Assembly: GCA_965232265.1 (NCBI GenBank)
Contig: CBDDPH010000002.1
Span: 434,257-498,256, forward strand
Length of the DNA: 64,000 nt
Source of the DNA: Candidatus Latescibacterota bacterium
GTDB lineage: Bacteria > Latescibacterota > UBA2968
Direction of reading: 5' to 3'
Shown: positions 128 to 50,184 of the stretch, in pieces
Position numbering within the stretch: the stretch's first letter is position 1
Layout: each line of letters opens with the position of its first letter
The notes under the pieces: model-generated
Told to the model about the DNA's origin: nothing
Seen by the model: only the letters and a program-made list of their open reading frames with translations
The model's database searches: none
Position numbers and translations under genes: made by a program

Positions 128-2587
128 ATGAACAATTCTGATCGGCCTATCCGCAAGTTCAATCCGGGGACGTTTCAGTCCGACGAGGAGGTGATTGAGC
201 AGTTTACGGTGAGAAAACACGAACTCAATACGGTGCTTGGAGTACTGCGCGGGAATATCGGTTCACTGTCGTGTCAACACGTTCTGGTGGTCGCGCCTCG
301 GGGTCGGGGAAAGACGATGTTGCTCGCGCGCGTCTCGGCGGAGTTGAATGCTGATGAGGAACTCTCTATGTGTTTTTTATCAGTTCGATTTATGGAAGAA
401 AATCACGAGATATTTGATCTCGCGGATTTTTGGCTCGAGACTTTGTTTTATCTCGCGCGGGAGAGCGTCAGGCAGGATCCTAAGCTCGCACAGGAACTGC
501 GAGAGGCACACGCCGATCTGACTGCTCGCTGGGACGAGGATGCGCTCGCGGATCGCGCCCGTGACACTGTTTTGGATGCGGCGGAACGATTGGGTAAAAA
601 ACTCGTTCTTATGGTGGAAAATTTGCAGGCACTCTGCGGAGGTTTGGATGACGATTTTGGCTGGCAACTGCGCGGCGCGTTGGAGTCAGAGCCTCGGATC
701 GTGTTGCTCGCTACTGCGACGAGTCGCTTTGAGGGGTTGGAAAATGCGGCAGAGCCGTTCTTCGAGTTGTTCCGAATTGTCGATCTGGAATCGCTGAGTA
801 CTGAGGACTGCTGCCGTCTGTGGGAGGTGGTCAGCGGCGATGCGGTGACTGAGCACGAGATCAGGCCGCTCGAGATCCTGACAGGTGGCAACCCCCGCCT
901 TCTCATTATGGTCGCTGAGTTCGCGCAACACCGGTCATTGCGCCAGTTGATGGAGGAACTGGTGACACTGATTGACAAGCATACCGAGTATTTTCGCGGT
1001 TATCTGGAGGCTTTGCCCAAGAGCGAACGCCGCGTGTATCTCGCGTTGATTGATTTTTGGCGACCGTCGAGTACGAGCGAGATCGCGGCACGGGCGCGTA
1101 TGGGGGTTCGGACCGTATCAACGATGCTCGGTCGGCTTGTGAACCGGGGTGCAGTCGTCGTGGAGGGGTCCAGCAGGAAGCGATTGTACGCCGCAGGAGA
1201 ACCTCTTTATAGCATCTATTACAAGCTGCGACGCGAGCGCGACGAGGCGACAGTTATGAGAAGGCTGATCCATTTCATGATGGCGTTCTACGGGATAGGC
1301 GAGTTGTGCCAGATGTCCGGTCGGCCGAGTTTGGAGGCGGCAGAGTCAAAGGTTATTCGCGAGGGGATTGAGCGTGCGCTCGTCGAACCACCGGACGTTG
1401 AGGACAGTTTTTTGCGCGTGGCATGGTCGGCTGTCGAATATATATCGGATAAAGCGACGGCAAATGCGCCATTCACGGCGGAACTGCGTTTAAAAGAGGA
1501 GGTCCAATCGGCGCTCGATGAGAGAGAATTTGAAAGGGTTGTGGAGATTGGTGACCGTTTTATCGCTTCTGGAGGCGTGGATGCATCTCTCATGTCGGAG
1601 TCTCTCGTCGCCTACATATTGCATACAAGGGCGATTGCTTATGAAAAATTGGAGGATTTCCAAGGAGTGGTCGCGGTTTGCGATGAGATGGTTGAGCGTT
1701 TCGACGACGCATCCGACCATACTCTTCTGGCGCGGATGGCCCGCGTATTGATCCACGGGGCAAGAGCGCGATATGAACTTGGGGAGTTGGCGTTGACGGT
1801 GTCTGCGTATGATGAGGTGATTGAGCGTTTTGGGACCAGCGATGCGCCCGATTTCCAGTTCCCGGTCGCTCTGGCGCTGTTAAAAAAGGGAGATTTGCAA
1901 GTTCAACAGAGAGAGTTGGGGCTGGCGGTGTCTGCTTATGAAGAGGTGATTACTCGCTTTGGTACCAGTGATGCACCGGGGATTCAACTTTTGATCGCCT
2001 GGGCGTTGTCCCAAAAGGGAGATTTGCAAGTTCAACAGGGAGAGTTGGCACTGGCAGTATCTGCTTATGAAGAATTGATCGTGCGTTTTGGGGTCAGTGA
2101 TGTGCCAGCAATCCAGGTTCTGGCCGCCTGGGCGTTGTCCCAAAAGGGGGTGATACAAATCGAGGTAGGACGTGTGGAAGAAGCTCTGCTGATAAGTGAA
2201 GAGCTTGAAGGAAGACTCGGTGCTTTGACTCTCAATGAGAAGGTGATGTTTACATGGCGAGTGAGATATGTGCAGGCTTTGGCTCTACAGCTTAAGAAAA
2301 GGCAACAGTTTGCCATGGATATGTTTCGGTCGGCGTATGCTGTGTTCGTGCCAAACGACGAGACGATGATGTACGAGATGCTACAACTCGTGCCCGCTTT
2401 GATCGCAAACGGTGCCTCAGAGCACGATCTTGTCGATATCCTCCTGTCCAGGGAGAAATCCGATGCGCTGGAACCCCTTATTATTGCTTTGCGACAGCGT
2501 ACCGGCGAGGTGGTTCGCGCGCCTGTGCAGGTTCTTGAGGTGGCGCGGGATATCAATAAGCGCATTGAGATGGGAAGCGTGAAGTGA
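128..2587 (+). CDS. STAND-type P-loop NTPase (Arch_ATPase/AAA_16-like N-terminal domain, DUF234-like winged helix, C-terminal TPR-like repeats)
   Basis: Walker A VVAPRGRGKTMLL preceded by FTVRKHELNTVL (Arch_ATPase-like); Walker B-like LVLMVENL; wHTH-like segment ALIDFWRPSSTSEIAARARMGVRTVSTMLGRL; three 41-aa helical repeats at the C-terminal half. Confidence 0.6.
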   Translation: MNNSDRPIRKFNPGTFQSDEEVIEQFTVRKHELNTVLGVLRGNIGSLSCQHVLVVAPRGRGKTMLLARVSAELNADEELSMCFLSVRFMEENHEIFDLADFWLETLFYLARESVRQDPKLAQELREAHADLTARWDEDALADRARDTVLDAAERLGKKLVLMVENLQALCGGLDDDFGWQLRGALESEPRIVLLATATSRFEGLENAAEPFFELFRIVDLESLSTEDCCRLWEVVSGDAVTEHEIRPLEILTGGNPRLLIMVAEFAQHRSLRQLMEELVTLIDKHTEYFRGYLEALPKSERRVYLALIDFWRPSSTSEIAARARMGVRTVSTMLGRLVNRGAVVVEGSSRKRLYAAGEPLYSIYYKLRRERDEATVMRRLIHFMMAFYGIGELCQMSGRPSLEAAESKVIREGIERALVEPPDVEDSFLRVAWSAVEYISDKATANAPFTAELRLKEEVQSALDEREFERVVEIGDRFIASGGVDASLMSESLVAYILHTRAIAYEKLEDFQGVVAVCDEMVERFDDASDHTLLARMARVLIHGARARYELGELALTVSAYDEVIERFGTSDAPDFQFPVALALLKKGDLQVQQRELGLAVSAYEEVITRFGTSDAPGIQLLIAWALSQKGDLQVQQGELALAVSAYEELIVRFGVSDVPAIQVLAAWALSQKGVIQIEVGRVEEALLISEELEGRLGALTLNEKVMFTWRVRYVQALALQLKKRQQFAMDMFRSAYAVFVPNDETMMYEMLQLVPALIANGASEHDLVDILLSREKSDALEPLIIALRQRTGEVVRAPVQVLEVARDINKRIEMGSVK
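1790..2160 (+). repeat. Three tandem ~123-nt near-identical repeats inside the NTPase CDS (41-aa units GELALAVSAYEEVI.RFGTSDAP.IQ.L.AWALSQKGDLQVQQ)
   Basis: Visible in both DNA and translation; units >80% identical. Confidence 0.7.
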
Positions 2588-5645: not shown

Positions 5646-7457
5646 TTAAGAAGTGTGAAAGTCCTGGAGTGAGCGAATGCGAATTGTGCTGTTGTTTTTG
5701 AGCGATTGGATGCCGGCAACAGCGGCGGCGGCTCCCGATAAGGTGGTTGTGTAGGGCAGGCCGTATTGTATGGCTGCTTTGCGAATTTCGGGGTCGGCGG
5801 CCTGGGATTGCTCTCCTGCAGGGGTGTTGATCATGAGAGAGATTTCGCCGTTTTTGATGGCGTCGAGGATGTTTGGGCGTCCTTCCTGGATTTTGAAGAT
5901 CCGATTACAGGCTATGTTGTGGCTTTTGAGAAAGGCGCAGGTTCCCCCTGTGGCAATGAGGCGAAAGTTCATGTCGGATAGTTGTTGGGCAATGGGTACA
6001 AGTCCTTCTTTGTCGCGGTCGTTGACGCTTAAAAATACGGTTCCCTCCTGGGGCAAGCGCACGCCTGCGCCGAGTTGCGCTTTTTGGAAGCTGAGGCCAA
6101 AGTCGGTGTCTATGCCCATGACTTCGCCGGTGGATTTCATTTCGGGACCGAGGACGGTGTCAACGCCGGGAAATTTGTTGAAGGGCAAGACGGCTTCTTT
6201 GACGGCAATGTGGCTGATGGGTACTTCCCGGGTAAAGCCCTGTTCTGCAAGTGTGCGCCCGACCATTGCGCGGGCAGCGACTTTGGCCAGGGGCACGCCA
6301 ATGGCTTTGCTGACAAAGGGTACGGTGCGCGATGCTCTGGGGTTGACTTCGATAATAAATACGTCTTCGCCTTGAATGGCAAACTGAATGTTCATGAGGC
6401 CCACCACGTTGAGTGCTCTGGCCAGGGCGCGCGTGTGGCTTCGCAGTTCATTGAGGTTGGTGTCGGAGATTTTATAAGGGGGTAAGACGCAGGCGCTGTC
6501 GCCAGAGTGTACGCCCGCGCTTTCGATGTGTTGCATGATGCCGCCGATGACGACTGCTGTTGGATCTGCTACGGCATCGACGTCAAATTCGTGTGCGTCT
6601 TCTAAAAATCGGTCGATGAGGATGGGGCGTTCAGGAGAGGCTTCTATGGCATTGTGCATATAGGCGATGAGGGCTTCGCGGTCATATACGATTGCCATTG
6701 CGCGGCCCCCGAGTACATAAGAGGGGCGCACGAGAACTGGATATCCGATTTGTTCGGCTATGGCGATTGCTTCGTCGGTGCTTATTGCGGTGCCGTTTTC
6801 GGGTTGTCGTATGCCCAGTTCTTTGATGAGTGCGCCAAAGCGCTTGCGGTCTTCGGCCAGGTCAATGGCGTCGGGCGATGTGCCGGCGATGTTGAGGCCC
6901 CCGCGTTCGAGGTCGCGCGCGAGGTTGAGCGGTGTTTGTCCGCCGAATTGAACAATGACGCCGTCGGGTTGTTCAACATCGGCGATGCTGAGTACGTCTT
7001 CGGCAGTGAGCGGTTCAAAGTAGAGTTTGTCGGATGTGTCGTAGTCGGTGGAGACGGTTTCGGGGTTGGAGTTGACCATGATGGTCTCAAATCCGTCTTC
7101 TTTGAGGGCATAGGAGGCGTGGCAACAACAATAGTCGAATTCGATGCCCTGTCCAATGCGATTGGGTCCGCCGCCCAGGATCATGATTTTTTGGCGATCG
7201 GATCGGATGGCTTCGTTATCTGTTTCATAGGTCGAATAGTGATACGGCGTATAGGCTTCAAATTCGGCGGCGCAGGTATCTACGGTTTTGAATACGGGCG
7301 CGATGCCGAGTTCTTTTCGCAAGGCGCGAACAGCCCATTCGTCACTTTGCCACAGGTGTGCCAGTTGGCGGTCGGAGAAGCCATGTTGTTTGGCTTTGAG
7401 CAGGTCTGCGCGCGTGATGCGCGATTTTAAGTCGTTGAGTGTGTGCTGTTTTGTCAT
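5646..7457 (-). CDS. carB: Carbamoyl-phosphate synthase large subunit, C-terminal half (second ATP-grasp domain plus MGS-like domain), encoded as a separate CDS
   Basis: Starts inside the oligomerisation domain (VFKTVDTCAAEFEAYTPYHYSTYE); second ATP-grasp and MGS-like domain motifs; ATG 2 nt after the stop of the N-half CDS. Confidence 0.85.
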   Translation of the reverse strand: MTKQHTLNDLKSRITRADLLKAKQHGFSDRQLAHLWQSDEWAVRALRKELGIAPVFKTVDTCAAEFEAYTPYHYSTYETDNEAIRSDRQKIMILGGGPNRIGQGIEFDYCCCHASYALKEDGFETIMVNSNPETVSTDYDTSDKLYFEPLTAEDVLSIADVEQPDGVIVQFGGQTPLNLARDLERGGLNIAGTSPDAIDLAEDRKRFGALIKELGIRQPENGTAISTDEAIAIAEQIGYPVLVRPSYVLGGRAMAIVYDREALIAYMHNAIEASPERPILIDRFLEDAHEFDVDAVADPTAVVIGGIMQHIESAGVHSGDSACVLPPYKISDTNLNELRSHTRALARALNVVGLMNIQFAIQGEDVFIIEVNPRASRTVPFVSKAIGVPLAKVAARAMVGRTLAEQGFTREVPISHIAVKEAVLPFNKFPGVDTVLGPEMKSTGEVMGIDTDFGLSFQKAQLGAGVRLPQEGTVFLSVNDRDKEGLVPIAQQLSDMNFRLIATGGTCAFLKSHNIACNRIFKIQEGRPNILDAIKNGEISLMINTPAGEQSQAADPEIRKAAIQYGLPYTTTLSGAAAAVAGIQSLKNNSTIRIRSLQDFHTS

Positions 7458-7459
7458 GG

Positions 7460-8908
7460 TTAGTCCATCAGGGCGGCGAGTTCTTTTTCTACTTCGACGA
7501 GTTGTCGCATGTTGTCGAGAAACCAGGGGTCAATTTTGGTGGCGTCAAAAATTTCCTGTACGGATAGTCCCGCGTCATAAGCCGTTTTGAGATAGGCCAA
7601 TCGCTGCGAGTTGGGTTCGCGCAGGCCGCGTTCGAGGGCTTCTCGCGAGAGGGTGTTGGGATGGATGTCTTTGCCGTCGGCACCAAATCCCGCACGCCCG
7701 ATTTCGAGCGAGCGCAAGCCTTTTTGCAGTGCTTCTTTAAACGTGCGACCTATGGCCATGGTTTCACCTACAGATTTCATTTGTGTGCCCAACAGATCAG
7801 CGGTTTGGGGAAATTTCTCAAATGTCCAGCGCGGGATTTTGATGACGCAATAGTCGATGGTGGGTTCAAATGAGGCGGGTGTTTCGCGCGTGATGTCGTT
7901 TTGTATTTCGTCCAGGGTGTATCCAATGGCGAGTTTGGCGGCTATTTTGGCGATAGGAAAGCCCGTGGCTTTTGAGGCGAGTGCGGAACTGCGGGAGACG
8001 CGGGGGTTCATTTCTATGACGACGCGCCGGCCCGTGTTGGGGTCAACTGCAAACTGGATATTGGAGCCGCCGGTTTCCACGCCGATTTCGCGGATGCAGG
8101 CGATGGCGTCATCGCGCATTTCCTGATATTCTTTGTCTGTGAGCGTTTGCGCGGGTGCCACGGTGATGGAGTCACCCGTGTGTACGCCCATGGGGTCGAA
8201 GTTTTCTATGGAGCAGATGATGACGACATTGTCGTTTTGGTCACGCATGACTTCGAGCTCGAATTCTTTCCAGCCGATGATGGATTCTTCTACGAGGATC
8301 TCAGAGGTGGGCGATAGGCTGAGTCCGTGTGCAGCAGCTTGTCTAAATTCTTCGATATTGTACGCGGTGCCAGCGCCTGTGCCGCCCAGGGTGTAAGACG
8401 GGCGGATGATGGCGGGAAATCCGATTTCAACCGTGATGTCGCATGCTTCTTTGAGGGTGTAGGCAAATCGGCCTTTGGGGAAGTCGAGGCCGATTTTATT
8501 CATGGCTTTTTGGAAGGCTTCGCGGTTTTCGGCTTTTTCTATGGCGTGTGGTTTTGCACCGATCATTTCGACGTCAAATTTTTCGAGTGTGCCCTGTTCG
8601 TGCAGGGCCATGGCAGTGTTGAGGCCCGTTTGTCCGCCCAGGGTTGGGAGGATGGCATCTGGGCGTTCTTTTTCGATGATGGCTGCACACACTTCGGGGG
8701 TAACGGGTTCGACATAAGTCTGGTCAGCCATTTCGGGGTCGGTCATGATGGTGGCGGGGTTGCTGTTGACCAGCACGACTTCGTATCCCTCTTCTTTGAG
8801 GGCTTTGCAGGCTTGTGTGCCCGAGTAGTCAAATTCACAGGCTTGTCCGATGACGATGGGACCAGAGCCGATGAGCATTATTTTTTTGAGGTCGGTTTGC
8901 TTGGGCAT
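7460..8908 (-). CDS. carB: Carbamoyl-phosphate synthase large subunit, N-terminal half (first ATP-grasp domain plus start of oligomerisation domain)
   Basis: [57 protein letters not shown] is a canonical CarB N-terminus; ends ...[11 protein letters not shown] then TAA. Confidence 0.85.
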
Positions 8909-8950
8909 AAAGAGCTTTCAGGGGTTAGCGATCAAAGGTAATGTATCCGA

Positions 8951-9045
8951 CTGTAGGGGACGGTCCCCGTATAGAAGCACTACGGGGCAGGCTCCCGTCA
9001 TTGCGGCATGCTTAAAGCCGCAATCCAGTGGTTTTTGTCATTACT
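8951..9045 (+). repeat. REP-like mosaic element copy B (CTGTAGGGGACGGT-[CCCCGTA-loop-TACGGGG]-...GTCATTGCGGC-ATGCTTAAA-GCCGCAATCCAGTGG-TTTTTG); overlaps the 3' end of nnr
   Basis: Same architecture as copies at 43.14 and 46.6 kb; stem carries a compensatory T/A change (ATTGCGGC/GCCGCAAT). Confidence 0.5.
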
Positions 9046-10587
9046 GGCGTCGTTGCGTATTTGGTGAATGGCGGCGGCAAAGTTTTCGATGATGTCACTG
9101 GCGATGAGGCTTATTTGTCCTGTTTTTTTCGCTGCAATATCAGCGGCGAGGCCGTGGAGATAGACGGCTGTGCAGGCGGCGTCTGAGGGGTTGAGTCCCT
9201 GACCGATCAGGGCGGCGAGAAGGCCCGTAAGTACGTCTCCTGTGCCGCCGGTTGCCATGCCCGGGTTCCCGGTTGGGTTGATGTGCGCCCGGCCTTCTGG
9301 CGTTGCGACGATGGTCGGCGCGCCTTTCAGGACTGTGGTGGCTCCGACATCGGTGGCGAATTCTGTGGCACGTGCTATGGGGTCGCGCTGCATTTCGGAG
9401 ATGCTGTACCCGGTCAGGCGCGCAAATTCCCCGATGTGCGGGGTGAGTACCAGGGGTGTTTTGCAGGCGCGGACCGCGGCGAGGTCGCCAGCGAGTGCGT
9501 TGAGGGCGTCGGCGTCGATGACTGCGGGAGATCTCAGGTCACGCACGAGGCGACGGATGAGTTCGACGGTTTCTCGATGGGTCCCCAAACCCGGACCTAT
9601 TGCGATACTGTCGGCTGTGCAACAGGCGCGTTGTATTTCGCACCGGGCGCGCAGGGACAGGCATCTGACTTTTTTTATTTCGGGTAGGGGTTGGGTCATG
9701 GCTTCGGTGACTTTGGTTTCGAGTATGTCGTTGAGGCTTTTGGGTACGCCGAGTGTGACGAGGCCCGCGCCTCCTTTGAGTGCCGCGTTTGCCGAGAGTG
9801 CTGCCGCGCCTGTAAGTCCCACGGACCCGGCGAGAATATACACTCTGCCGCAATCCCCTTTGTGGACGTCGGGTTCCCGGTGGGGAAGCAGACGAGCGCA
9901 ACGGCGGTTGTCGATGAGGGAGGTGCGAATGCGTTCGGCCTCAATTGCCGAGGGGGGAATCCCGATGTCTATGAGGTGCAAGTTGCCGCACCGGGCGCGA
10001 CCAGGGTAGAAGAAGTGTCCAATGCGCGGCCGTGCAAATGTGACGGTGCGTGTTGCGGTTGCACAGGCCCCTTCGATTTCGCCCGTGTCGGCGTTGAGTC
10101 CAGAGGGTATATCTACGGCGACTATGGGGCATCTGGCGCGGGTGAGAGCGTTTATGAGGTCGGCGTATATGCCGCGGGGAGGCCCCTGGATACCCGTGCC
10201 CAATAGCGCGTCAACGGCAATGTCGGCATTGGCGAGTGCATGTTGTACTGTTGTGATGTGGTCGACCGGCTGCACGATGTCTGGGGGCAGTCGGTCGAGG
10301 TTGGTTTTTGCATCGCCTGTTATTTCCCGGGCGGATGTGGCTGTGAATACCTGGACTTTTGCCCTGCTTTGGGCAGCTTGTCTGGCGATGACAAAGCCGT
10401 CGCCGCCGTTGTTGCCTTTGCCACAGAGGATGACGATGTGCCGGTTTTGGAAGTCGCCCAACAGGTTTTCTACGACCCGGGTTACGCCTTGCCCGGCGGC
10501 TTCCATGAGTTCAATGCTCGGCACACCACTGTCAACTGCCCGACGGTCAATGGATGCCATCTGGGAGCCGGTGATAAGCTCAATCAT
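8998..10587 (-). CDS. nnr: Bifunctional NAD(P)H-hydrate repair enzyme Nnr (YjeF-N epimerase plus YjeF-C ADP-dependent dehydratase)
   Basis: N-terminal ILCGKGNNGGDGFVIAR (YjeF-N) and C-terminal carbohydrate-kinase-like GGTGDVLTG motif. Confidence 0.8.
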   Translation of the reverse strand: MIELITGSQMASIDRRAVDSGVPSIELMEAAGQGVTRVVENLLGDFQNRHIVILCGKGNNGGDGFVIARQAAQSRAKVQVFTATSAREITGDAKTNLDRLPPDIVQPVDHITTVQHALANADIAVDALLGTGIQGPPRGIYADLINALTRARCPIVAVDIPSGLNADTGEIEGACATATRTVTFARPRIGHFFYPGRARCGNLHLIDIGIPPSAIEAERIRTSLIDNRRCARLLPHREPDVHKGDCGRVYILAGSVGLTGAAALSANAALKGGAGLVTLGVPKSLNDILETKVTEAMTQPLPEIKKVRCLSLRARCEIQRACCTADSIAIGPGLGTHRETVELIRRLVRDLRSPAVIDADALNALAGDLAAVRACKTPLVLTPHIGEFARLTGYSISEMQRDPIARATEFATDVGATTVLKGAPTIVATPEGRAHINPTGNPGMATGGTGDVLTGLLAALIGQGLNPSDAACTAVYLHGLAADIAAKKTGQISLIASDIIENFAAAIHQIRNDASNDKNHWIAALSMPQ

Positions 10588-19084: not shown

Positions 19085-21070
19085 TCAATACCATTTGTGA
19101 ACGGTGTGTCCCTGGGGCATGAACCAGATCGCATCTACGATGAGACCCAGAGCGGTTGATAGCACGTAAGCCACAAGCATGCCGACGAAAAACGGTTTTG
19201 AGCGGCGGTAAAAGGGTGCTCCGCCGATACGCAATAATGTGAATTTGATCAGCCAGGCGACAAAGATGGTGAAACTGGTGAGGCGGGCGAGCATGGTGCC
19301 CGATAGGGCGAGTCCGATGGGGTGCAGGGGCCACGATGTGAATTGGTAGCGCAAGAATAGCAGGGCATACATGGCAAATGCGCCGATCAGGAAAAAATAG
19401 TAGTCGATGACTTCCATGGGTTGCGGCGATACGATCGCGTTGACAGAATTTTGATAGCCGCCTACGCCAGCGCGAATGATGAGCCAGTTTGGCGAGAAAT
19501 TGTACCCGCCAATGCGATAGCCCAGCCAGATTGTAAAGAGGGTGGATGAGACGATGCCGACCACAAACGCCACGCAAAGGCCGCCAAAGAGGGGGCGTTT
19601 ATTGCCGGGGATGAAGTCGGACAGGCGGTTGAGATGCGTGCCCACGGAAAAGGTAAATCCGCGGAAGTGGTTGATGGCGACAGATGCGGGATAGAGCATG
19701 GCGTGTGTTGCCGCTGGAATGGCGCGGGCACCGCCCATGAGCGCGGTTGTCAGGGTCCAGGCTGAGGCCGGCGCATTTACGTAAATGAGGCCCGAGTCGG
19801 CGAGAATTTTCGATATGGCACCATAAGTCAAGAACATGGTTGGCAACAGGATGGCGATGACTTTCCACGCGATACCGGATGCGGATAGCCAGACCAGGAC
19901 ATAGGCGATTGAGACGGCGAGACAGCAGAAGGCTATGCGATAGGATATGAGTTCTCGGCTGTCGTCTATATGCGCGCTTTTGGGATAAAGCGCTTTTTGA
20001 AATGCCTGTTTCAGATGCGCCCGCGCAATCCATACCCACCACAGAGACAGGGCGACAAATGCGCCGGTTGTTTGCCAGGAATAGCGTTTGGTGGCATAGT
20101 AGCGGTGAAAGGCCGGTATGCCGAGTTGATCCAGGATACCGGATTCTACGGTGAACAGGAGATCGAAGAGCCACAGGCTGAGCAATACTTCCAAGCTCGC
20201 GAAATACGAAAAGCATATTCCCACTGTGCTTACAAATACCCACTGCGGCGGAAAGTTTCGGCCAATGGGTACCCAAGTGCCGCCGGCGGTTGGAAATTTT
20301 GGCAGCGCGGGATGAAACCACGCAATGATGTTCCAGACAAATATTACGCCCACCACGCCAAATCCGGTCCAAAACATCCGACCCTGCATAAATTCGGGCA
20401 AGTAGGTCCGCCCGGTGCCGGGCTGTGTGGTCAGTTCAACGATGGGTTCCATCGCGGGATAGACCAGTTTTTCGTGCTCTGCCCATTGTTTACGCATGAT
20501 GACCGAAGCACAAAAGCAGGCGAGTGCGACGGCACATACAAAGGTGAACCACCAGAAGAGGGGACCGATCCAGACGGACCATGGCACGGGCGCACCGGCG
20601 GGCAAGCCGTCGTAGAACCAGTTCATTGCACCGTCGCGATTGGACGGGATGATCCATTCGGGCAGGTACGGGTGCAAAAACTCTGCCCATCGGTTTTCGG
20701 GTGTAGAAAAATAATAAGGGGTTACGATGACGCCGACGAGATAGCCGCTTACGCCATAGGTGGGGCCGAGGGAACTGATAAAGCCCATAGAAAAAATTAC
20801 GAGCCATTCGCCCGAGGAAAAGGCAAAGGGTTTGCCAAACCACCGCGCGAGCACACCACACACAATCAAACACAATAGTGTGAGCATCAAATTGCCCATG
20901 GGCATGTGGCTATAGGCCATGAAGGAGCTGTGCAAGATGTATCGCACGACTGTTGCCAGTGCGCTGATTGCGACGACCAGCACAAGCCCGAAGATCAGCG
21001 ATCGGACTGTGACCCCTTTGTTCGCATGATCTGGCGAATTTGCGATTGGATATGTTTGTTCTGCGCTCAA
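19085..21070 (-). CDS. Uncharacterised polytopic membrane protein (~14 TM), paralog of 46847..48835
   Basis: Shares blocks TPENRW...PYLP...PSN; GLP.G...PW.VWIGP.FWW; ILRKQW.E.E.L.YP and C-terminal FMPQGHTVHKWY versus FPGGGHGVHGWA with the second copy. Confidence 0.5.
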   Translation of the reverse strand: MSAEQTYPIANSPDHANKGVTVRSLIFGLVLVVAISALATVVRYILHSSFMAYSHMPMGNLMLTLLCLIVCGVLARWFGKPFAFSSGEWLVIFSMGFISSLGPTYGVSGYLVGVIVTPYYFSTPENRWAEFLHPYLPEWIIPSNRDGAMNWFYDGLPAGAPVPWSVWIGPLFWWFTFVCAVALACFCASVIMRKQWAEHEKLVYPAMEPIVELTTQPGTGRTYLPEFMQGRMFWTGFGVVGVIFVWNIIAWFHPALPKFPTAGGTWVPIGRNFPPQWVFVSTVGICFSYFASLEVLLSLWLFDLLFTVESGILDQLGIPAFHRYYATKRYSWQTTGAFVALSLWWVWIARAHLKQAFQKALYPKSAHIDDSRELISYRIAFCCLAVSIAYVLVWLSASGIAWKVIAILLPTMFLTYGAISKILADSGLIYVNAPASAWTLTTALMGGARAIPAATHAMLYPASVAINHFRGFTFSVGTHLNRLSDFIPGNKRPLFGGLCVAFVVGIVSSTLFTIWLGYRIGGYNFSPNWLIIRAGVGGYQNSVNAIVSPQPMEVIDYYFFLIGAFAMYALLFLRYQFTSWPLHPIGLALSGTMLARLTSFTIFVAWLIKFTLLRIGGAPFYRRSKPFFVGMLVAYVLSTALGLIVDAIWFMPQGHTVHKWY

Positions 21071-43136: not shown

Positions 43137-43224
43137 GCTGTAGGGGACGGTCCCTGTGCCGTCCCGCCAGTCATCGCGGCATGATGTTGAGCCGCGATCC
43201 AGAAGGGTTTTTTAATTACTGACG
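43137..43224 (+). repeat. REP-like mosaic element copy C (CTGTAGGGGACGG-TCCCTGTG-CCGTCCC-GCCAGTCATCGCGGC-ATGATGTTGA-GCCGCGATCCAGAAGGG-TTTTTTAATTACTGACG)
   Basis: Most complete copy; lies between the two heparinase-like genes. Confidence 0.5.
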
Positions 43225-43230
43225 TTGTGC

Positions 43231-46200
43231 CTATGTGCTGGTCGCTGTATTCCATTCATAATCAACAGTTGCGCGCACGGTTTCGATCTCGCCATTGGCA
43301 ATGCGAAGGTGTACGGCGTTTTGTATTTCGCACGGGTCGCCTGTGGAAATATCATAAACAAAGCCTTTTGCGTAATCCTCGCGGGATACAAGGCCGCGGA
43401 TGAAGGAGGTGTCACCCACTTCTACGCGGACTTTATTTTTTTCTGAAGATACGATGTCGGAGATGGTGTAACAGGCGTCCCGAATGCCGTCGTTTAAGAC
43501 CCGGATCTGTGTGCCGATGAGGCGTTTGTCCGGGGGCAGGTCGCCTTCTATTTCAATCCAGGCAGGGCCGGTTTCTTCGCGGTGAAAGTCCGTTACGGTG
43601 CCGCGGTGAATTGGGGCGTTGATCCGCAGGGTTCCAGAGGTGGTGTTTACCCGGGTCCCGCCCAACAGAAAGATGGATGTTTGTCCGTTGCCCCGGGATA
43701 TGATTGCAAATCGCCCCGCGGCTGTGATACCTTCTCCCAGGTCAAATACGCGGTTCGGGTCGTCAGATGACAGGATGTGATCTGTCCGACCTGTATGGGT
43801 TGTTATTTTTACAGCCACTGCTGTTAAGTCGCGTTCGTCCAGTCCGAGATCAATACGGGTGGCGTCTGCTATATGAGGCTGGTTCTCGCGGTAAGGTTCT
43901 ATGACGGAGGCGAAGAGGCTTTGCTCTGAGCCGGTGTTGTGCAAGAGTACATAGCGGATGCGCCGGGGGTTGCCGGGTTTGTTTTGCGGGGGATCGCCCC
44001 ATGCCAGAGCCGCGTTTTCTGCGTTGGATAATACGCGGTAGCGCAGGTGCAGGGGGGTGTCACCGTGCTGGGTTTTCCAGGTATCTGCGAGTTTCCAGTC
44101 TGCCCACCATCCAGCCGCGGGTTTCTCTGCGCGGTGAACGCCGTAGAGGTAGGCAAAGCCACTGCCAAGGTAGCGTCCATCAGGTGGTCCGTCGTAGTGC
44201 GTGCCAAAGGGGATGGTTTCGCCCGCATAAGTTCCTTTTTTCTGTGGGGTGAGGTCGATGCCCTGCGTGGTCACGTCGCCATCTCCGGCGTGGAAGCTCA
44301 TGATGTGGTCGTTTCCGCCATCCACGCGGAAGAAGTCGATGAGGTAAGATTCGGTGGGCGATACGTCGATCATTGCGAGGGTGCGCCGATAGTCGCGTGT
44401 GTTGGAATAGATTTCGGGGGATGCGATTTCGACGACGCCTATGCCCCGCGAGGTGGCAAAATATTGGCAGTGCCCGATCCAGTTCACTTCTTGCTGCTGC
44501 TGATTTACCATGACGGTGTTGTGCGAGATGGTGTTTGTGGTCCAGCCCGCTCGCTTGGGCCATTTGCTGTCGGCGTATTCGGGGTATCCCAGGTCGGGCA
44601 ATACGTCCATTCCGCGGTAGTACATTCCAAAGTTCAACCGATCTTTGTGACCGTGTCCACCGTTGCGCCCGTAATACAGCCAGGCCGCCCGCTGGTCGGT
44701 TCCTTCTCCGTGTCGGAATACGGTGAGTCCATAGCCGTTCAGGTTTTCGCTTTTGAGTTCTAATTCGCCGTGTTGCTTTGCGATGTCGAGGACGGTTTTC
44801 TGGATTGCTTCGGGGTCGGCGTCGAAGATGGAGGTGTGCAGGCCGTCGGTGCTGTTTCCGTTGAGTTTGTACGCGAGGCGCGCGAGGTCGGGGTCGCCGA
44901 GCCGGACATAAGCGCTGATGATTGTTTGGAGTTCTACGCTTACCATGCCTTCGCCTCCGGTGTTGCCAGTGTCGCCGATGTGGAGGGTGTAGCGGTCCAG
45001 TGTGGTGAGGCGATAGGGTGCGCTGTACATGCGCTTGAGGCGGGGATAGTCGCGGTATAGATCAAAGTCCCGGTATTTGCGACACCGGTCCAGTACCCAG
45101 GCACAGCGGGCAAATGCGTTCATCCAGCCAAAACAATAGCCGGGCGCTGCTTCGTTGCCAATGCCGTCTCGATCTACTTCTCCGATCAGGGTCGCGGGGA
45201 TGTGTCCCCCACCAGTGCCTCGGGATTCTCCGGGTTCAAAGAGCCAGTCGAGTGCTTCGGGCGTTTCTCGTGGGTTGTCCAGTACTGCCGCCGCAGTGGC
45301 CATGGCAGTTTGGGTCATGCCTTCGTTGCCGCGGATGCGCCGGTCTCGACAGGAGCGTATAAATTCTCGGAGGAGTCCGCGTTCGATGTTTTCGCGGATG
45401 TGGGCGATGCTCGATTTGGGCTGTTTGATCTGCCATTTTTCCGCTTGTGCGGATAGGAATCGGACGAGTTCATTGTCGTCTTCTATGCCTTCGGAGATCA
45501 TGTCGCAGGATAGGGATAGGGTTTCTGCCATGCCGTTTTCCCATATACAGCCTTTGATGCGGCCCATGCCCGTGCCGCCGTGGGAGTTGTAGAGGCCCAG
45601 ATCCGAGTAGGGGGTTAAGTCCATGTCGGGATAGACGTCTGCGATGCGGTCGAGGATGACGGCGCCTTTGTGGGCATAAGTGGTGTCGCCCGTATAGAGA
45701 TACGCTTTGCCCAGGGCGAGTGCCGCTGCTGGCAAGTCGGTCCATGTGCAATAATGGCTGTAGTAGGCGATGAACCACCAGCGATTTCCCGATTCGTCGA
45801 TCCAGCCCATGCCGTCATCTACTGCATAGTGTGGGGCATTGGCGTTTTCGGCGTTGTATAGCAGGGTTTCATCGGCGAGGCTGCGTTCGAAGATTCCACC
45901 GGATCCCAGGCCGCTTTTGTAAAATGCCTCAAAGTCGTTTTTGGGCCAGATTTCTCCGCACGACGGACATTCGAGTTTATAGGGGCGTTCCAGCGATACT
46001 TTCCATGGGTAGTTGCCGAATGCATAGACGTCTCGACCGCATTCGGGACAGCCGAGGTCGGGGTTGACGTGGATGCCGCGGGGAATGGATTGTCCGGTGA
46101 TCATATCCCAGATTTCTCCATCACTTCGCGCGACCCAAGGCGCGCATGTTTCGATTGCGGCATCTCGCTCGGCTTTTGCCCATGCATAGCGTTGGATGTT

Positions 46201-46242
46201 TCGCCGGGCATTGCTTATTTCTTTAGGTGTGTACAGTCCCAT
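43231..46242 (-). CDS. Heparinase II/III-family protein with N-terminal CxxC...CxxC zinc-ribbon insert, no signal peptide
   Basis: CPECG...CPSCG near N-terminus; WLYYGRNGGHGHKDRLNFGMYYRGMDVLPDLGYPEY resembles the Hepar_II_III C-terminal domain. Confidence 0.55.
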   Translation of the reverse strand: MGLYTPKEISNARRNIQRYAWAKAERDAAIETCAPWVARSDGEIWDMITGQSIPRGIHVNPDLGCPECGRDVYAFGNYPWKVSLERPYKLECPSCGEIWPKNDFEAFYKSGLGSGGIFERSLADETLLYNAENANAPHYAVDDGMGWIDESGNRWWFIAYYSHYCTWTDLPAAALALGKAYLYTGDTTYAHKGAVILDRIADVYPDMDLTPYSDLGLYNSHGGTGMGRIKGCIWENGMAETLSLSCDMISEGIEDDNELVRFLSAQAEKWQIKQPKSSIAHIRENIERGLLREFIRSCRDRRIRGNEGMTQTAMATAAAVLDNPRETPEALDWLFEPGESRGTGGGHIPATLIGEVDRDGIGNEAAPGYCFGWMNAFARCAWVLDRCRKYRDFDLYRDYPRLKRMYSAPYRLTTLDRYTLHIGDTGNTGGEGMVSVELQTIISAYVRLGDPDLARLAYKLNGNSTDGLHTSIFDADPEAIQKTVLDIAKQHGELELKSENLNGYGLTVFRHGEGTDQRAAWLYYGRNGGHGHKDRLNFGMYYRGMDVLPDLGYPEYADSKWPKRAGWTTNTISHNTVMVNQQQQEVNWIGHCQYFATSRGIGVVEIASPEIYSNTRDYRRTLAMIDVSPTESYLIDFFRVDGGNDHIMSFHAGDGDVTTQGIDLTPQKKGTYAGETIPFGTHYDGPPDGRYLGSGFAYLYGVHRAEKPAAGWWADWKLADTWKTQHGDTPLHLRYRVLSNAENAALAWGDPPQNKPGNPRRIRYVLLHNTGSEQSLFASVIEPYRENQPHIADATRIDLGLDERDLTAVAVKITTHTGRTDHILSSDDPNRVFDLGEGITAAGRFAIISRGNGQTSIFLLGGTRVNTTSGTLRINAPIHRGTVTDFHREETGPAWIEIEGDLPPDKRLIGTQIRVLNDGIRDACYTISDIVSSEKNKVRVEVGDTSFIRGLVSREDYAKGFVYDISTGDPCEIQNAVHLRIANGEIETVRATVDYEWNTATST

Positions 46243-46253
46243 CGCGATGCTCC

Positions 46254-46595
46254 TTATGAGGTTTCAAAGGCTTGTGCGAAGATCAAGAAGTCGCCAAATC
46301 CCACTTTTCCGTCCAGGTCCAGGTCAAAGGGGGCGAATACGGTCGCGTATTCACCTACTGTTTTTCCGTAGGCGTTGGCGAATAGGAGAAAGTCTTCAAA
46401 TTCTATTTTTCCATTGCTGTCAAAGTCTGCGCTGCGGGAGGTGCTGGCTTTGGGATAGGCGGCGACTACGCCGTCGATTGCGTTCCCATAGTTTGCGACA
46501 AATGCCCGGTCCATTTCGGGGTAATACATCAGGGGCCAAAATTCCATTTGTGAGCCATATAGAGATGTCTGAATTATATCAACAGCACCTTCCAA
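46254..46595 (-). CDS. Small ORF carrying two dockerin-type (EF-hand-like) calcium-binding repeats
   Basis: DFDSNGKIEFEDFLLFANAYG and DLDLDGKVGFGDFLIFAQAF match the dockerin repeat pattern D.D.(N/D)G.I...DF..F; no signal peptide. Confidence 0.45.
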   Translation of the reverse strand: MEGAVDIIQTSLYGSQMEFWPLMYYPEMDRAFVANYGNAIDGVVAAYPKASTSRSADFDSNGKIEFEDFLLFANAYGKTVGEYATVFAPFDLDLDGKVGFGDFLIFAQAFETS

Positions 46596-46602
46596 ACTGG
46601 AC

Positions 46603-46720
46603 GCCTGCTTAAAGCATGCAGAGCCTGCCCCTGCACGTCTTAAGCAGGGGCGTGACGACAGGAAGAGCCGCCGTCATCGCGGCGTGGTTTTAGCCGCGAT
46701 CCAGAAGGTTTGTTTGTCAT
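46603..46720 (+). repeat. REP-like mosaic element copy D (inverted GCTTAAAGCATGC fragment, GCCCCTGC/GCAGGGGC hairpin, GTCATCGCGGC-GTGGTTTTA-GCCGCGATCCAGAAGG-TTTGTTTGTCATCGC)
   Basis: Conserved 3' module plus different GC-rich 5' hairpin; in divergent promoter region. Confidence 0.45.
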
Positions 46721-46846
46721 CGCAGCTAAATTTTTATGGCTTATCGCCGCTATATGTGACTATATTAACGTCGCAAAATTACATGACATATTTCCGAAAA
46801 CAAGAAAAATTGGGCTTGCCTCAAAAGTCCATTCCACAAAAACACC

Positions 46847-48835
46847 ATGGCCCTTCCCGAATCCCTGTCTCCCACATCTGAAGATGCCCAACGAAAAGCG
46901 GCGCGTATTACGCCTCGCAGTGTCGCGCTGGGGCTTTTGATTTCTTGTCTGGCGAGTGCATGGGTGACGTATTCCCGCACGGCTGCAAATACTTCCGCGG
47001 TCAATATTACCCATCTTCCGGTTTCTATTTTTGCGATTTTTCTGTGCGTTTTTATTGCCAATACGCTTTTGAAGATTCGGTTCGATAGACAAGGTCTGGC
47101 TTCCCGTGAACTGGCTGTTATTTTCGCGATGGGCCTGATTGGGGCGATTATTCCCGCACGCGGGTTGACCGGTGTCTGGCTGGGGCTGATGGCCGCGCCT
47201 TATTATCTGGCAACGCCGGAGAACGGGTGGATTGACAATGTTCAGCCCTATCTTCCGCCGTATCTTTTTCCGTCTAATGATCACCAGCAAACGACGTTTT
47301 TGTACGAGGGCTTGCCATCTGGGGTGTCCATTCCGTGGGAGGTGTGGATCGGTCCGATTTTCTGGTGGGTTACGCTGATTTTGGCCGGGTTTGTGGTGTG
47401 TTTTTGTCTGGTGGTTATTCTTCGCAAGCAATGGGTTGAGAGCGAGCGTCTGGATTATCCCTTGCTCGCACCTGTTCTCGAGATGGTTGCAGAGACGCGC
47501 GATTCTTCGGGTCGAAGCGGTTGGCCGATCCTTTTTCGGGGGTATCTCTTTTGGATTGGTTTTGGGCTGGCGTTTGGGATTATCGGATGGAATATTATTA
47601 CTTATTTTTATACGACGGTTCCCCGCATTAGCATGAGTCCAAATGGCGGGCTTTTTTATTTTGCGCGTCTTTTCCCGCCTTTGTTGACACATCTTAATAC
47701 TTATACGATTGGCTTTGGATATTTTGTCAATCTGGAAATTCTTTTTTCGATCTGGTTCTTTCACTTTGTGCTGATGGGCGAGATCGCGCTTATTCGGAAG
47801 ACGGGTTTTCAGTTTGGGCGGATGCACCAGAAGGGCGGTGGATGGGGCGATCCCCTGGTGCAGTGGCAGTGTATGGGCGCGCTTTTTGTGTTTGTGGGCT
47901 GGGGGCTGTGGACTGCGCGGCGGCATTTGAAGGCGGTTTTCAGGAAGGCTTGGAATGACGATCCCGATGTGGATGATACGAATGAGCTTCTCTCATACCG
48001 CACGGCTGTGATTGGCCTGATTGTCGGCGTTGCCTATATCATAGCCTATCTTTTGAAGGCGGGGGTTGCGCCGGGTCTTTTGATGGTTACGATACCGGCG
48101 GCGATCGTTATTTATATCGCGCTTGCCCGTTTTGTGTGCGAGTCGGGCACGCTGTATCTGGGTATTCCCACGACGCCTCTGAATATGGGTTTTCAACTGA
48201 TCGGTACGGTTACGATTGATCCGAGGACGATTGCCGTGGGCTCTACGGCTCACGCGCTGCGCTGGATGCTGTTTATGCCAGCTCTGTCGCAGAATGCCAA
48301 AGTTTTTGACCGCGTGCCGGGCAATAAGCGCGCGCTTTTCTGGGTGCTGCTTTTGGGGTTGGTCGGCGCGCTTGTGGTCAATATTTCGATGGTGCTCTAT
48401 CTGGGCTATACACACGGGGCGTACAATTTTACGGAGTATCCGTTTACCCGGTACGCGCCCCGGCTGTACGATGCGATTGTTACGAAGATCAAATCGCCCG
48501 AGCCGGCTTCATGGGAGCGGGTGGTGCTGTTCGGCTTTGGGGGCCTCATTTTTGCGATTCTCACGGCACTTCGGTATCGCCTGCCCTGGTGGCCCATTCA
48601 TCCCGTGGGTTTTATTATCACGACGACGAGTATTCTGCACGAGATTACGTCGCTTATTATTGTCTGGCTGTTCAAAGCTATTGTGATCCGGGTGGGTGGT
48701 GTGTCCCTTTACGAAAAATATCGCCCGCTCTTTTTTGGGATTATTGCGGGGAGGGCGACGGGGGTGCTCGTTTCGTTTGTTGTCGATTTGATCTGGTTTC
48801 CCGGGGGTGGACACGGGGTGCATGGTTGGGCGTGA
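46847..48835 (+). CDS. Uncharacterised polytopic membrane protein, paralog of 19085..21070
   Basis: Collinear similarity with the first copy throughout (see that entry). Confidence 0.5.
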   Translation: MALPESLSPTSEDAQRKAARITPRSVALGLLISCLASAWVTYSRTAANTSAVNITHLPVSIFAIFLCVFIANTLLKIRFDRQGLASRELAVIFAMGLIGAIIPARGLTGVWLGLMAAPYYLATPENGWIDNVQPYLPPYLFPSNDHQQTTFLYEGLPSGVSIPWEVWIGPIFWWVTLILAGFVVCFCLVVILRKQWVESERLDYPLLAPVLEMVAETRDSSGRSGWPILFRGYLFWIGFGLAFGIIGWNIITYFYTTVPRISMSPNGGLFYFARLFPPLLTHLNTYTIGFGYFVNLEILFSIWFFHFVLMGEIALIRKTGFQFGRMHQKGGGWGDPLVQWQCMGALFVFVGWGLWTARRHLKAVFRKAWNDDPDVDDTNELLSYRTAVIGLIVGVAYIIAYLLKAGVAPGLLMVTIPAAIVIYIALARFVCESGTLYLGIPTTPLNMGFQLIGTVTIDPRTIAVGSTAHALRWMLFMPALSQNAKVFDRVPGNKRALFWVLLLGLVGALVVNISMVLYLGYTHGAYNFTEYPFTRYAPRLYDAIVTKIKSPEPASWERVVLFGFGGLIFAILTALRYRLPWWPIHPVGFIITTTSILHEITSLIIVWLFKAIVIRVGGVSLYEKYRPLFFGIIAGRATGVLVSFVVDLIWFPGGGHGVHGWA

Positions 48836-48918: not shown

Positions 48919-50184
48919 TCAAGCGTTCTTCAAGGCATTTACCGCTTCGATCAATCGCCGGTCGGCTTTGTAGCGCAATTCTAAGATCGCGTCTATGTCC
49001 GATAGTGCGTTGGACTCGGCCTGCAGACGGCACACATCAATGCGGTCTGACAGGGCATTCATGACCACGTCGAGCAACATCAAATCTGTGACATCGTCAG
49101 CAACCATACACTCATCGGCCAGAACCTTGCGGATCATTTCCAGGGGTTTTTTGAGTGCCTCGGCGTCTGGGATGGATTCTCTATTTCCATTGTTGACCAG
49201 TTCGGGCGACAAGCTGCCGAGAAAGCCTTCGCTGATAAATTGCCGGGTTTTGTTTTCGGTCCACGATTGCGCCAATATTTGTGTCAATCTGCTCGACGGT
49301 TGATCGGGTTTCTTCTCTCGACTGCGATCGCTGCTGCGCTTTGAAGGCCGCTGCTTGTTCTGATTGCTTTGTTCGTTGCGCTGGCGTCCTTTTGGTGGGC
49401 GAGACACATTGCGCGTATTTTCTTTTTTCGGTTCTTCTGTTTTGGGCTTATCCTGCGTGCTCTGAACAGGTGTTTCGGTTCGCGCTTGCGGTTGTGCTTC
49501 TGGCTCCGCAGATGTTTGAACGGTTTTTTCCTCTGTGTTCGCGTCCTGCCGTCGCGTGGGTTGAGCAGGTGCGCTTACACCGGCGTGATCTTCCCAGCCA
49601 ATTGGAGCTGATCGCTTTGTCCGACGTCCCCATTGCATTTCTTCTGGTTGCACATCCTGGGGCGTTTGTGTTTGCGCGGTTTCTGCCTCTTTTCGATTCT
49701 GTTCGGCGGAAGCCTTTGCTTCGACCTTTTCCCTTTCCCTGCGCTGTCTGGATGGTGGCGAGGAGATCACCGTGCGCTCTTCCTGTGTGGCAGGCATTTC
49801 AGCCTTTTTTGCAGGCTTCTTGGCTTGCTGCGCTGGTTCCTTGGCCTGTTTTACAGCCTTTTTTGCAGGCTTCTTGGACGATTGCTTTTTCGATACACGC
49901 GGTGTAGAAGACCTGGTGTTCGTTTTCTTGGCCGGCTTCTTGGCCGGCTTCTTGGCCGTTTTTTTCGTCGCCTGCTTTTTGGCCGGCTTCTTAGCTGATC
50001 GTTTTTTTGTGGCACGCGGTGTAGAAGATCTGGTGTTCGTTTTCTTAGCTGGCTTTTTGGCTGTTTTTTTCGTCGCCTGCTTTTTTGACGGACGTTTTGC
50101 TTTTTTTGCTGTGGATGTCGCGCCTTGTGTTTCCCGAGGTTCTTCAGCCTGTGTTTTCACTTTTGCCATAATTTCCTTTCGCAA
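48919..50184 (-). CDS. Lys/Ala-rich histone-H1-like (AKKPAKK repeat) basic protein with acidic middle region and conserved helical C-terminal domain
   Basis: N-terminal 150 aa almost entirely K/A/T/P (KKTAKKPAKK repeats) including a duplicated 39-aa unit; C-terminal ~120 aa non-repetitive. Confidence 0.5.
   Translation of the reverse strand: MRKEIMAKVKTQAEEPRETQGATSTAKKAKRPSKKQATKKTAKKPAKKTNTRSSTPRATKKRSAKKPAKKQATKKTAKKPAKKPAKKTNTRSSTPRVSKKQSSKKPAKKAVKQAKEPAQQAKKPAKKAEMPATQEERTVISSPPSRQRREREKVEAKASAEQNRKEAETAQTQTPQDVQPEEMQWGRRTKRSAPIGWEDHAGVSAPAQPTRRQDANTEEKTVQTSAEPEAQPQARTETPVQSTQDKPKTEEPKKENTRNVSRPPKGRQRNEQSNQNKQRPSKRSSDRSREKKPDQPSSRLTQILAQSWTENKTRQFISEGFLGSLSPELVNNGNRESIPDAEALKKPLEMIRKVLADECMVADDVTDLMLLDVVMNALSDRIDVCRLQAESNALSDIDAILELRYKADRRLIEAVNALKNA
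49890..50125 (-). repeat. Two tandem 117-nt repeats (~90% identical) encoding TNTRSSTPR.(S/T)KK...AKKPAKK units
   Basis: Direct DNA repeat acgcggtgtagaaga(c/t)ctggtgttcgttttctt(g/a)gc... Confidence 0.6.

Follow-up and report, generated by a model that had tools for sequence, protein, structure and literature searches.

A dockerin-like mini-ORF in a Latescibacterota genome, probably a recent deletion remnant of a secreted glycoside hydrolase-like protein

The mini-ORF and its dockerin-fold module

The window, which is the whole 64,000-nt stretch of DNA that was analysed, originates from a Candidatus Latescibacterota bacterium and contains a mini-ORF located between a divergent gene encoding a DUF6785/DUF6784 membrane protein and a gene encoding a heparinase II/III-like protein. 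The presence of the mini-ORF, reported in an earlier note, was confirmed and its location is on the minus strand. It is the stop codon of the mini-ORF, not the start as the note had stated, that is found 11 nt 5' of the ATG (46242) of the 1003-aa heparinase-like gene. The genes and the parts of the mini-ORF are as follows.

46847..48835, plus strand: DUF6785/DUF6784 membrane protein, divergent and intact, the conserved neighbour of the parent gene
46254-46595, minus strand: mini-ORF, 113 aa from the TTG start at 46595
46548..46595, minus strand: 16-codon N-terminal extension of the annotated ORF, probably non-coding (alignment with relatives)
46254..46547, minus strand: putative remnant ORF with the conserved ATG as its start, 97 aa and a stop codon (protein alignment, blastn against L003 and L011, synteny of the slot)
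46449..46547, minus strand: barrel fragment of 33 codons (MEFWPLMYYPEMDRAFVANYGNAIDGVVAAYPK), strand-helix-strand, parent residues 160-192 from the middle of the TIM barrel
46257..46448, minus strand: linker and dockerin-fold module, 64 codons (profiles, AlphaFold2, PDB sequence and fold matches)
46392-46427, minus strand: Ca loop 1, DFDSNGKIEFED, 12 residues followed by the helix FLLFANAYG
46290-46325, minus strand: Ca loop 2, DLDLDGKVGFGD, 12 residues followed by the helix FLIFAQAF
43231..46242, minus strand: heparinase II/III-like (PL17-like) gene, 1003 aa, with Hepar_II_III_C (PF07940)

Alignment with relatives revealed that the ATG-proximal part of the 16-codon extension is native 5' leader and that the TTG itself is inside a window-specific REP-like insertion. 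The sequence ...TATATGACTCACAAA-TTG is common to the relatives, where it is located immediately 5' of the start codon, and no sequence matching the TTG region (46595) was found in any relative aligned. A Shine-Dalgarno motif is absent 5' of both candidate starts (TTG 46595 and ATG 46547). The true start is probably ATG 46547 with a product of 97 aa, since TTG 46595 sits in sequence that no relative has, and the annotated start codon of the 113-aa protein is probably wrong. The exact protein is recorded from one contig only (P0001, NCBI/ENA), as an ordinary small 'hypothetical protein', and a search of the contig index for the exact protein returned no record.

The C-terminal part of the product contains two duplicated Ca-binding loop-helix segments with ligand positions that are invariant in the alignment of the module. 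Pfam EF-hand_7 (PF13499) was matched with E=8.5e-07 and 29.7 bits, a marginal miss of the cutoff of 30, and the signal of the two loops exceeds chance by far. The scores with Pfam Dockerin_1 (PF00404) and NCBIfam dockerin_GC (NF041540) were 15.9 and 15.4 bits, under the respective cutoffs of 22.9 and 29. P0003, a distant homolog of the module, passes Dockerin_1 with 29.8 bits. The best PDB sequence match was 2y3n_B (E=3.7e-06), a dockerin belonging to a family-48 glycoside hydrolase from a cellulosome. The AlphaFold2 model of the 97-aa product showed block-mean pLDDT values of ~79-95 over the 57 C-terminal residues (41-97). When the PDB was searched with the predicted fold using Foldseek (E<=10), dockerins accounted for nine of the 13 matches, including the top nine. 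The best fold match was also 2y3n_B, with an rmsd of 1.4 A over 55 columns, TM of 0.75 on the target, 29% identity and probability of 1.00; the E value of only 0.049 is a consequence of the short length of the module. Matches at E<=0.001 were obtained for 891 library proteins, mostly via the dockerin module. The two repeats had previously been described as canonical dockerin repeats, a description that is true for the loops, helices and fold and false at the curated Pfam threshold, the curated profile cutoffs not being reached.

As in cellulosomal dockerins (type I/II), two tandem segments of ~22 residues each present a loop of the form D-x-D/N-x-D/N-G-x-x-x-x-x-D followed by a helix, the nearest structure by both sequence and fold is from Bacteroides cellulosolvens (2y3n_B), and the intact orthologs carry the module C-terminally on a secreted enzyme resembling carbohydrate-active enzymes. 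Unlike cellulosomal dockerins, the module scores below the Dockerin_1 cutoff and higher on EF-hand models, the host is a Latescibacterota MAG with no cohesin domain in the 24 window proteins scanned (23 large ORFs and the mini-ORF), and the copy in the window is stripped of carrier enzyme and signal peptide. The paired Ca-binding loops, and many calmodulin matches at E ~1e-4, are shared with EF-hand pairs (calmodulin-like, PF13499), although the module is without the entering helix of each EF-hand, as are dockerins, the fold search returned dockerins rather than calmodulins and the EF-hand_7 score is just under the cutoff. No other dockerin-like module was found in the window when a module HMM was searched against the six-frame translation. 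Dockerin-like modules are widely distributed beyond the organisms that produce cellulosomes, and Latescibacteria are among the groups whose genomes have been noted to encode them. A literature search combining 'Latescibacteria' and 'dockerin' found nothing relevant. Dockerins act outside the cell, normally tethering secreted enzymes to cohesins on scaffoldins (PMC5429695). The enzyme domain and the signal peptide expected with a dockerin are both missing from the mini-ORF; inspection found no hydrophobic N-terminus, in agreement with the earlier note.

The assignment of the downstream gene as heparinase II/III-like was likewise borne out by a domain match (Hepar_II_III_C, 44.2 bits versus a cutoff of 24), and the absence of a signal peptide by inspection of the N-terminus, which is not hydrophobic. 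The PL17 alginate lyase 7bm6 is among the nearest solved relatives in the PDB (E=7.1e-09). The score against the NCBIfam oligoalginate-lyase equivalog was 18.5, far below the cutoff of 1400. The AAGGAG ribosome-binding site of this gene overlaps the stop codon of the mini-ORF. The overlap, TAAGGAGcatcgcgATG, is identical in intact orthologs, and the 11-nt spacing is the same in the L011 and L003 orthologs.

The full-length parent gene and its neighbourhood

Homologs were retrieved by exhaustive HMMER search with P0002, a slightly longer metagenomic homolog of the mini-ORF. The matches included proteins of ~450-505 aa in which the 33 N-terminal residues of the mini-ORF fit an interior segment and the dockerin fits the C-terminus. 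A word-index search with P0004, one of these proteins, identified >750 homologs at E<=1e-5. They are 'hypothetical proteins' in which Pfam recognises no domain and they form a large family of ~450-510 aa, within which a subfamily measuring 494-509 aa bears an EF-hand/dockerin module at the C-terminus. The parent ortholog P0166 has 494 aa and starts with a Sec signal peptide, followed by a glycoside hydrolase (GH)-like TIM barrel into which a beta-sandwich is inserted, and ends with a dockerin. A hydrophobic N-terminus, LKSLICILLVFIARPLHA|S, opens the intact orthologs (P0166, L011 and others) and was judged by eye to be signal-like. No Pfam or NCBIfam family was matched by the parent protein.

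The AlphaFold2 model of P0166, built with 19 homologs, had a mean pLDDT of 82.4 and consists of an alternating strand/helix barrel, a beta-rich insert (213-351), two more barrel elements and two dockerin helices. The Foldseek matches in the PDB were glycoside hydrolases (E values of 7.9e-09 to 1e-05, probability 1.0), the top match being GH66 cycloisomaltooligosaccharide glucanotransferase (3wnn, E=7.9e-09), with further matches to GH5 enzymes, PslG (5bx9) and Cwp19 (5oq3). The sequence identities of these structural matches are 6-14% and the TM-scores 0.2-0.4, and since the TM-scores are low the GH-like assignment is at the level of fold only. In GH66 CITase a beta-sandwich or carbohydrate-binding module also interrupts the barrel, a feature seen in the predicted fold of P0166. 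The parent differs from the GH66, GH5, PslG and Cwp19 barrels in the lack of a family match and in the 6-14% identity, and the window keeps only 33 residues of the barrel. The modelling results are consistent with a parent protein that is a predicted secreted GH-like (beta/alpha)8 barrel with an inserted beta-sandwich.

P0166 is encoded on OZ244028.1 (L003=L006), a complete Candidatus Latescibacterota chromosome (MAG), where the order is SecA, rhodanese, GroES, GroEL, an intervening gene (x), the divergent DUF6785/6784 gene, the 494-aa gene, the heparinase-like gene, a gene for a protein of 802 aa, an isochorismatase-like gene and an SSF transporter. The same order is found in the window from 56170 to 38415, with the mini-ORF filling the slot of the 494-aa gene. 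The positions of the full-length parent gene, for which the corresponding window slot is 46254-46846, are as follows.

8001-9485: L003/L006
6001-7485: L011, L054, L013, L008 and L012

In a scan of genomes, nine species-level relatives (L006-L013 and L054) proved to have the gene at full length. Five of them are close to the window, with DUF6785 proteins 96.5-97% identical to that of the window in all five. The heparinase-like protein is 87-91% identical to that of the window in four of the close relatives, the gene being absent in L012. For the 64-aa dockerin block, identity is 84-94% to L003/L006, L008, L011-L013 and L054, and 76-82% to L007, L009 and L010. Between none and three of the 33 residues of the barrel fragment differ from L008, L011-L013 and L054. 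Over the 291 nt retained, the window shares 95.2% identity with L012, 94.2% with L011 and 91.8% with L001, the gene being intact in the first two. The earlier note had proposed a gene remnant as one explanation and advised a check for longer homologs; the finding of an intact 494-aa secreted gene at the exact position in syntenic relatives is in agreement with that proposal. The heparinase-like gene is absent in both L012 and L007, while ~40 C-terminal codons are left in L002 (590-710). A gene for a protein of 799 aa is located directly 3' of the dockerin gene in L012 (7485-7500).

The pairing of the parent with DUF6785/6784 is kept in L003-L006, L008-L017, L037, L055 and one JGI contig (upstream only in L007). 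Dockerin-bearing parents from Latescibacterota and Gemmatimonadota have a divergent DUF6785/6784 neighbour at all the loci checked for which the upstream flank is available. These results suggest that the dockerin-bearing parent and DUF6785/DUF6784 are a functional pair, and the parent family with this pairing deserves further study more than the remnant does. No paper mentioning DUF6785 by name was found in the literature. A second DUF6785/DUF6784 paralog of 661 aa (19085-21070, minus strand) adjoins a 1513-aa Peptidase_M28/FtsX-like protein and TPR proteins, with no GH-like partner beside it.

The two deletions, the leader region and selection

The deletions were defined relative to L011 (OZ242320.1) by blastn against L003 and L011. 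Only two blocks of the parent, residues 160-192 and 431-494, have a counterpart in the ORF of the window, and together they account for 97 of the 494 residues. The junctions, and the elements in the adjacent leader region, are listed below.

46545..46553, minus strand: junction of deletion 1, 477 nt, loss of the signal peptide and the N-terminal half of the barrel (codons 1-159)
46449..46452, minus strand: junction of deletion 2, 714 nt (238 codons), loss of residues 193-430 (rest of the barrel and beta-sandwich), microhomology CAAA
46583-46669, minus strand: palindromic REP-like insertion of ~85 nt in the leader/promoter, window-specific
46670..46745, minus strand: REP-like hairpin unit with core CATCGCGGC..GCCGCGAT at 46675-46700, common to L011, in which the gene is intact

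At deletion 1, the sequence CACAAATTGAAA of the native TTG start and the sequence CCCAACATGGAAT of codons 157-161 form an imperfect microhomology. The deletion joins the native 5' leader to Met160 such that the new ATG (46547) is 1 nt from the old TTG start. The native leader ...TATATGRCTCACAA is kept directly before the ATG, and the conserved leader ...TATATGGCTCACAA now continues into ATG(Met160)-GAA-TTT-TGG. Both deletions are in frame, with 397 codons gone in total, and the native stop and the 11-nt junction with the ribosome-binding site of the heparinase-like gene are untouched. The barrel fragment corresponds in the parent model to strands at 161-167 and 186-189 and a helix at 173-182, and in the AlphaFold2 model of the 97-aa product it is unstructured with pLDDT of ~42-57. 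In common with microhomology-deletion pseudogenes of bacteria, the locus shows microhomologies of 4-9 nt at both junctions and loss of essential parts, and relatives have an intact ortholog in its place; unlike in such pseudogenes, frame, start context and stop are all preserved. The deletions were seen in one assembly only, and neither junction was found when each was scanned against JGI metagenome contigs.

A lost N-terminal domain hidden in other frames of the upstream DNA, a check advised previously, was not found: tblastn of P0002 against the whole window returned the two known blocks only. The possibility that the ORF is the C-terminus of a frameshifted larger gene was also rejected, blastn against intact orthologs showing that the missing parts are absent, not shifted; the 397 codons were deleted outright and in frame.

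REP-like hairpins with the core CATCGCGGC-loop-GCCGCGAT form a family of intergenic elements in the window, at 2655-2680, 8999-9024, 43172-43198 and 46675-46700. Related elements occur at the same intergenic sites in L011 and L002, and the insertion at 46583-46669 is an extra, window-specific unit for which no counterpart was found in L011, L054, L012, L013 or L008. The suggestion that a REP copy (copy D) had disrupted the gene was not upheld, the L011 ortholog being intact despite a REP unit at the same upstream site and the deletion junctions lying outside and downstream of REP sequence. The 201-nt leader region folds at -79.2 kcal/mol (z=-5.7), and no known RNA was found in the leader by Rfam, which gave only three tRNAs in the window. 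An intergenic motif, TAATATAGTCACAYATAGCGGCRAYAAGCCAYAAAAATTTA (46729-46770, minus strand), which separates the divergent DUF6785 gene from the dockerin-enzyme gene, is conserved in every close relative and is probably a shared promoter or operator. The window also has TGATATAAT just upstream of the ATG of the mini-ORF, which matches the extended -10 consensus.

The pairwise dN/dS between the window and L001 over the retained sequence was 0.11 (16 synonymous and 8 nonsynonymous changes, dS 0.31, binomial p=2.5e-06), and the neighbouring intact gene gave dN/dS of 0.14 and dS of 0.26 for the same pair. Purifying selection on the remnant was nevertheless rejected as the reading of the value of 0.11: the closer relatives L012 and L011 have the intact gene, and the low value reflects the long shared past of the gene in intact form. 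The window has 5 nonsynonymous and 2 synonymous changes of its own, compared to 4 and 9 summed over four intact orthologs (Fisher p=0.16), a direction that would fit relaxed constraint with counts too small for a test. The deletions are recent in origin. An open mini-ORF with low pairwise dN/dS may, in general, still be a fresh remnant.

Two other public contigs, L001 (1-545) and L002 (56-598), have an in-frame deletion of 498 nt (166 codons) in which the beta-sandwich and one barrel strand are lost. Both contigs begin at the same base inside the parent gene, the N-terminal part being outside the contigs. L001 is not the sister of the window, and its deletion is independent with different endpoints. 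The comparison across genomes indicates that the locus repeatedly loses DNA and is apparently deletion-prone. Positions 1-53 of L002 (ena:ERZ27298219:k141_145687) start with an Illumina Nextera adapter (...TCGTCGGCAGCGTCAGATGTGTATAAGAGACAG), which means that this deposited contig contains adapter contamination.

Interpretation of the mini-ORF and other features of the window

The results point to the mini-ORF as a recent deletion remnant of the 494-aa secreted GH-like dockerin protein, a reading to which we assign a probability of roughly 0.8. In the clade of the parent the full gene sits between the divergent DUF6785/6784 gene and the heparinase-like operon, and two microhomology-mediated deletions (477 nt and 714 nt) would then have occurred in the lineage of the window. 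The 97-aa product is probably still translated and would be cytoplasmic. It can be neither secreted nor an enzyme, because the signal peptide and most of the barrel have been lost, and would have no role of its own because it cannot dock outside the cell. The remnant would persist as a result of the recent origin of the deletions and an open frame that is harmless to the downstream operon. The mini-ORF exemplifies routine gene decay rather than a novel type of intracellular dockerin protein; deletion-derived remnants are a known phenomenon and this instance is new. A public Latescibacterota 113-aa 'hypothetical protein' with EF-hand matches would accordingly be a deletion relic in annotation, one that pipelines call an ordinary 'hypothetical protein' because the frame, start context and stop are all kept.

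One feature that counts against a remnant is that both deletions in the window, and the independent deletion in L001, are in frame with start and stop contexts kept, a pattern that would also fit selection for an open frame. The pattern is biased because the mini-ORF was found as an ORF and L001 via a protein search. One explanation based on such selection is a translated leader, in which reading to the stop/AAGGAG overlap couples translation and prevents premature termination or polarity, the peptide itself being functionless; only in-frame deletions of a dispensable enzyme gene would then survive. The lengths of 477, 714 and 498 nt, all multiples of three, the native leader and start position kept within 1 nt, and the overlap TAAGGAGcatcgcgATG shared with intact orthologs are in line with a leader. 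However, out-of-frame remnants would be neither flagged nor retrieved as proteins, coupling may be needless for a downstream gene that comes with a strong Shine-Dalgarno motif itself, and the absence of the heparinase-like gene in L012 and L007 implies that pressure to express the operon is not the same throughout. A leader is considered unlikely on this balance. The earlier note had also raised an unusual intracellular Ca-binding module, for which no positive support was obtained. A functional stand-alone cytoplasmic dockerin/EF-hand-like protein, which might sense or buffer Ca2+ or bind to the heparinase-like enzyme, would account for a module that is complete, modelled with high confidence and in possession of the invariant Ca ligands D41, D43, D52, D75, D77 and D86, and for an open ORF with the ATG in native start context. 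Such a function is very unlikely given an allele found in a single genome with neither junction on any other contig found, closest relatives that are intact and leave almost no time for a new function, a majority of nonsynonymous changes (5 to 2) among those specific to the window, the continued presence of a 33-residue piece of the barrel with predicted disorder, and the extracellular action of dockerins (PMC5429695).

A broader proposition is that the remnant is maintained and translated as a 97-aa cytoplasmic polypeptide, whose role would be to secure expression of the PL17-like operon as a coupling leader or, with a partner inside the cell, to bind Ca as a free protein of dockerin fold. 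The proposition is considered improbable; if true, it would be a small protein caught in the act of birth, its source being the C-terminal module left when a secreted enzyme decayed. An assembly artefact, with an intact 494-aa gene in the real genome and gaps from a collapsed or mis-joined long-read metagenome assembly, would explain why the allele occurs in one contig only (4.72 Mb) and why scans of JGI metagenomes for the junctions gave no match. The junctions, however, are clean, in frame and at microhomologies, as for real deletions, the flanking sequence aligns collinearly with that of relatives, two other public contigs have the parent gene with a different deletion, and assemblers normally do not lose 477 and 714 nt of unique sequence, all of which renders an artefact extremely unlikely.

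Other features of the window were recorded. A gene at 48919-50184 (minus strand) encodes a 421-aa protein with a Lys/Ala/Pro-rich N-terminal half, tandem AKKPAKK-type repeats and a composition like that of histone H1; no Pfam match was found for the protein, and the ortholog slot in L003 is occupied by a 344-aa protein. The carbamoyl-phosphate synthase large chain is apparently split between adjacent genes on the minus strand, at 7460-8908 (482 aa) and 5646-7457 (603 aa). A 129-nt unit is present in three tandem copies, the second and third 76% and 67% identical to the first, at 1784-2170 (plus strand) within an 819-aa AAA_16/TPR regulator-like ORF.
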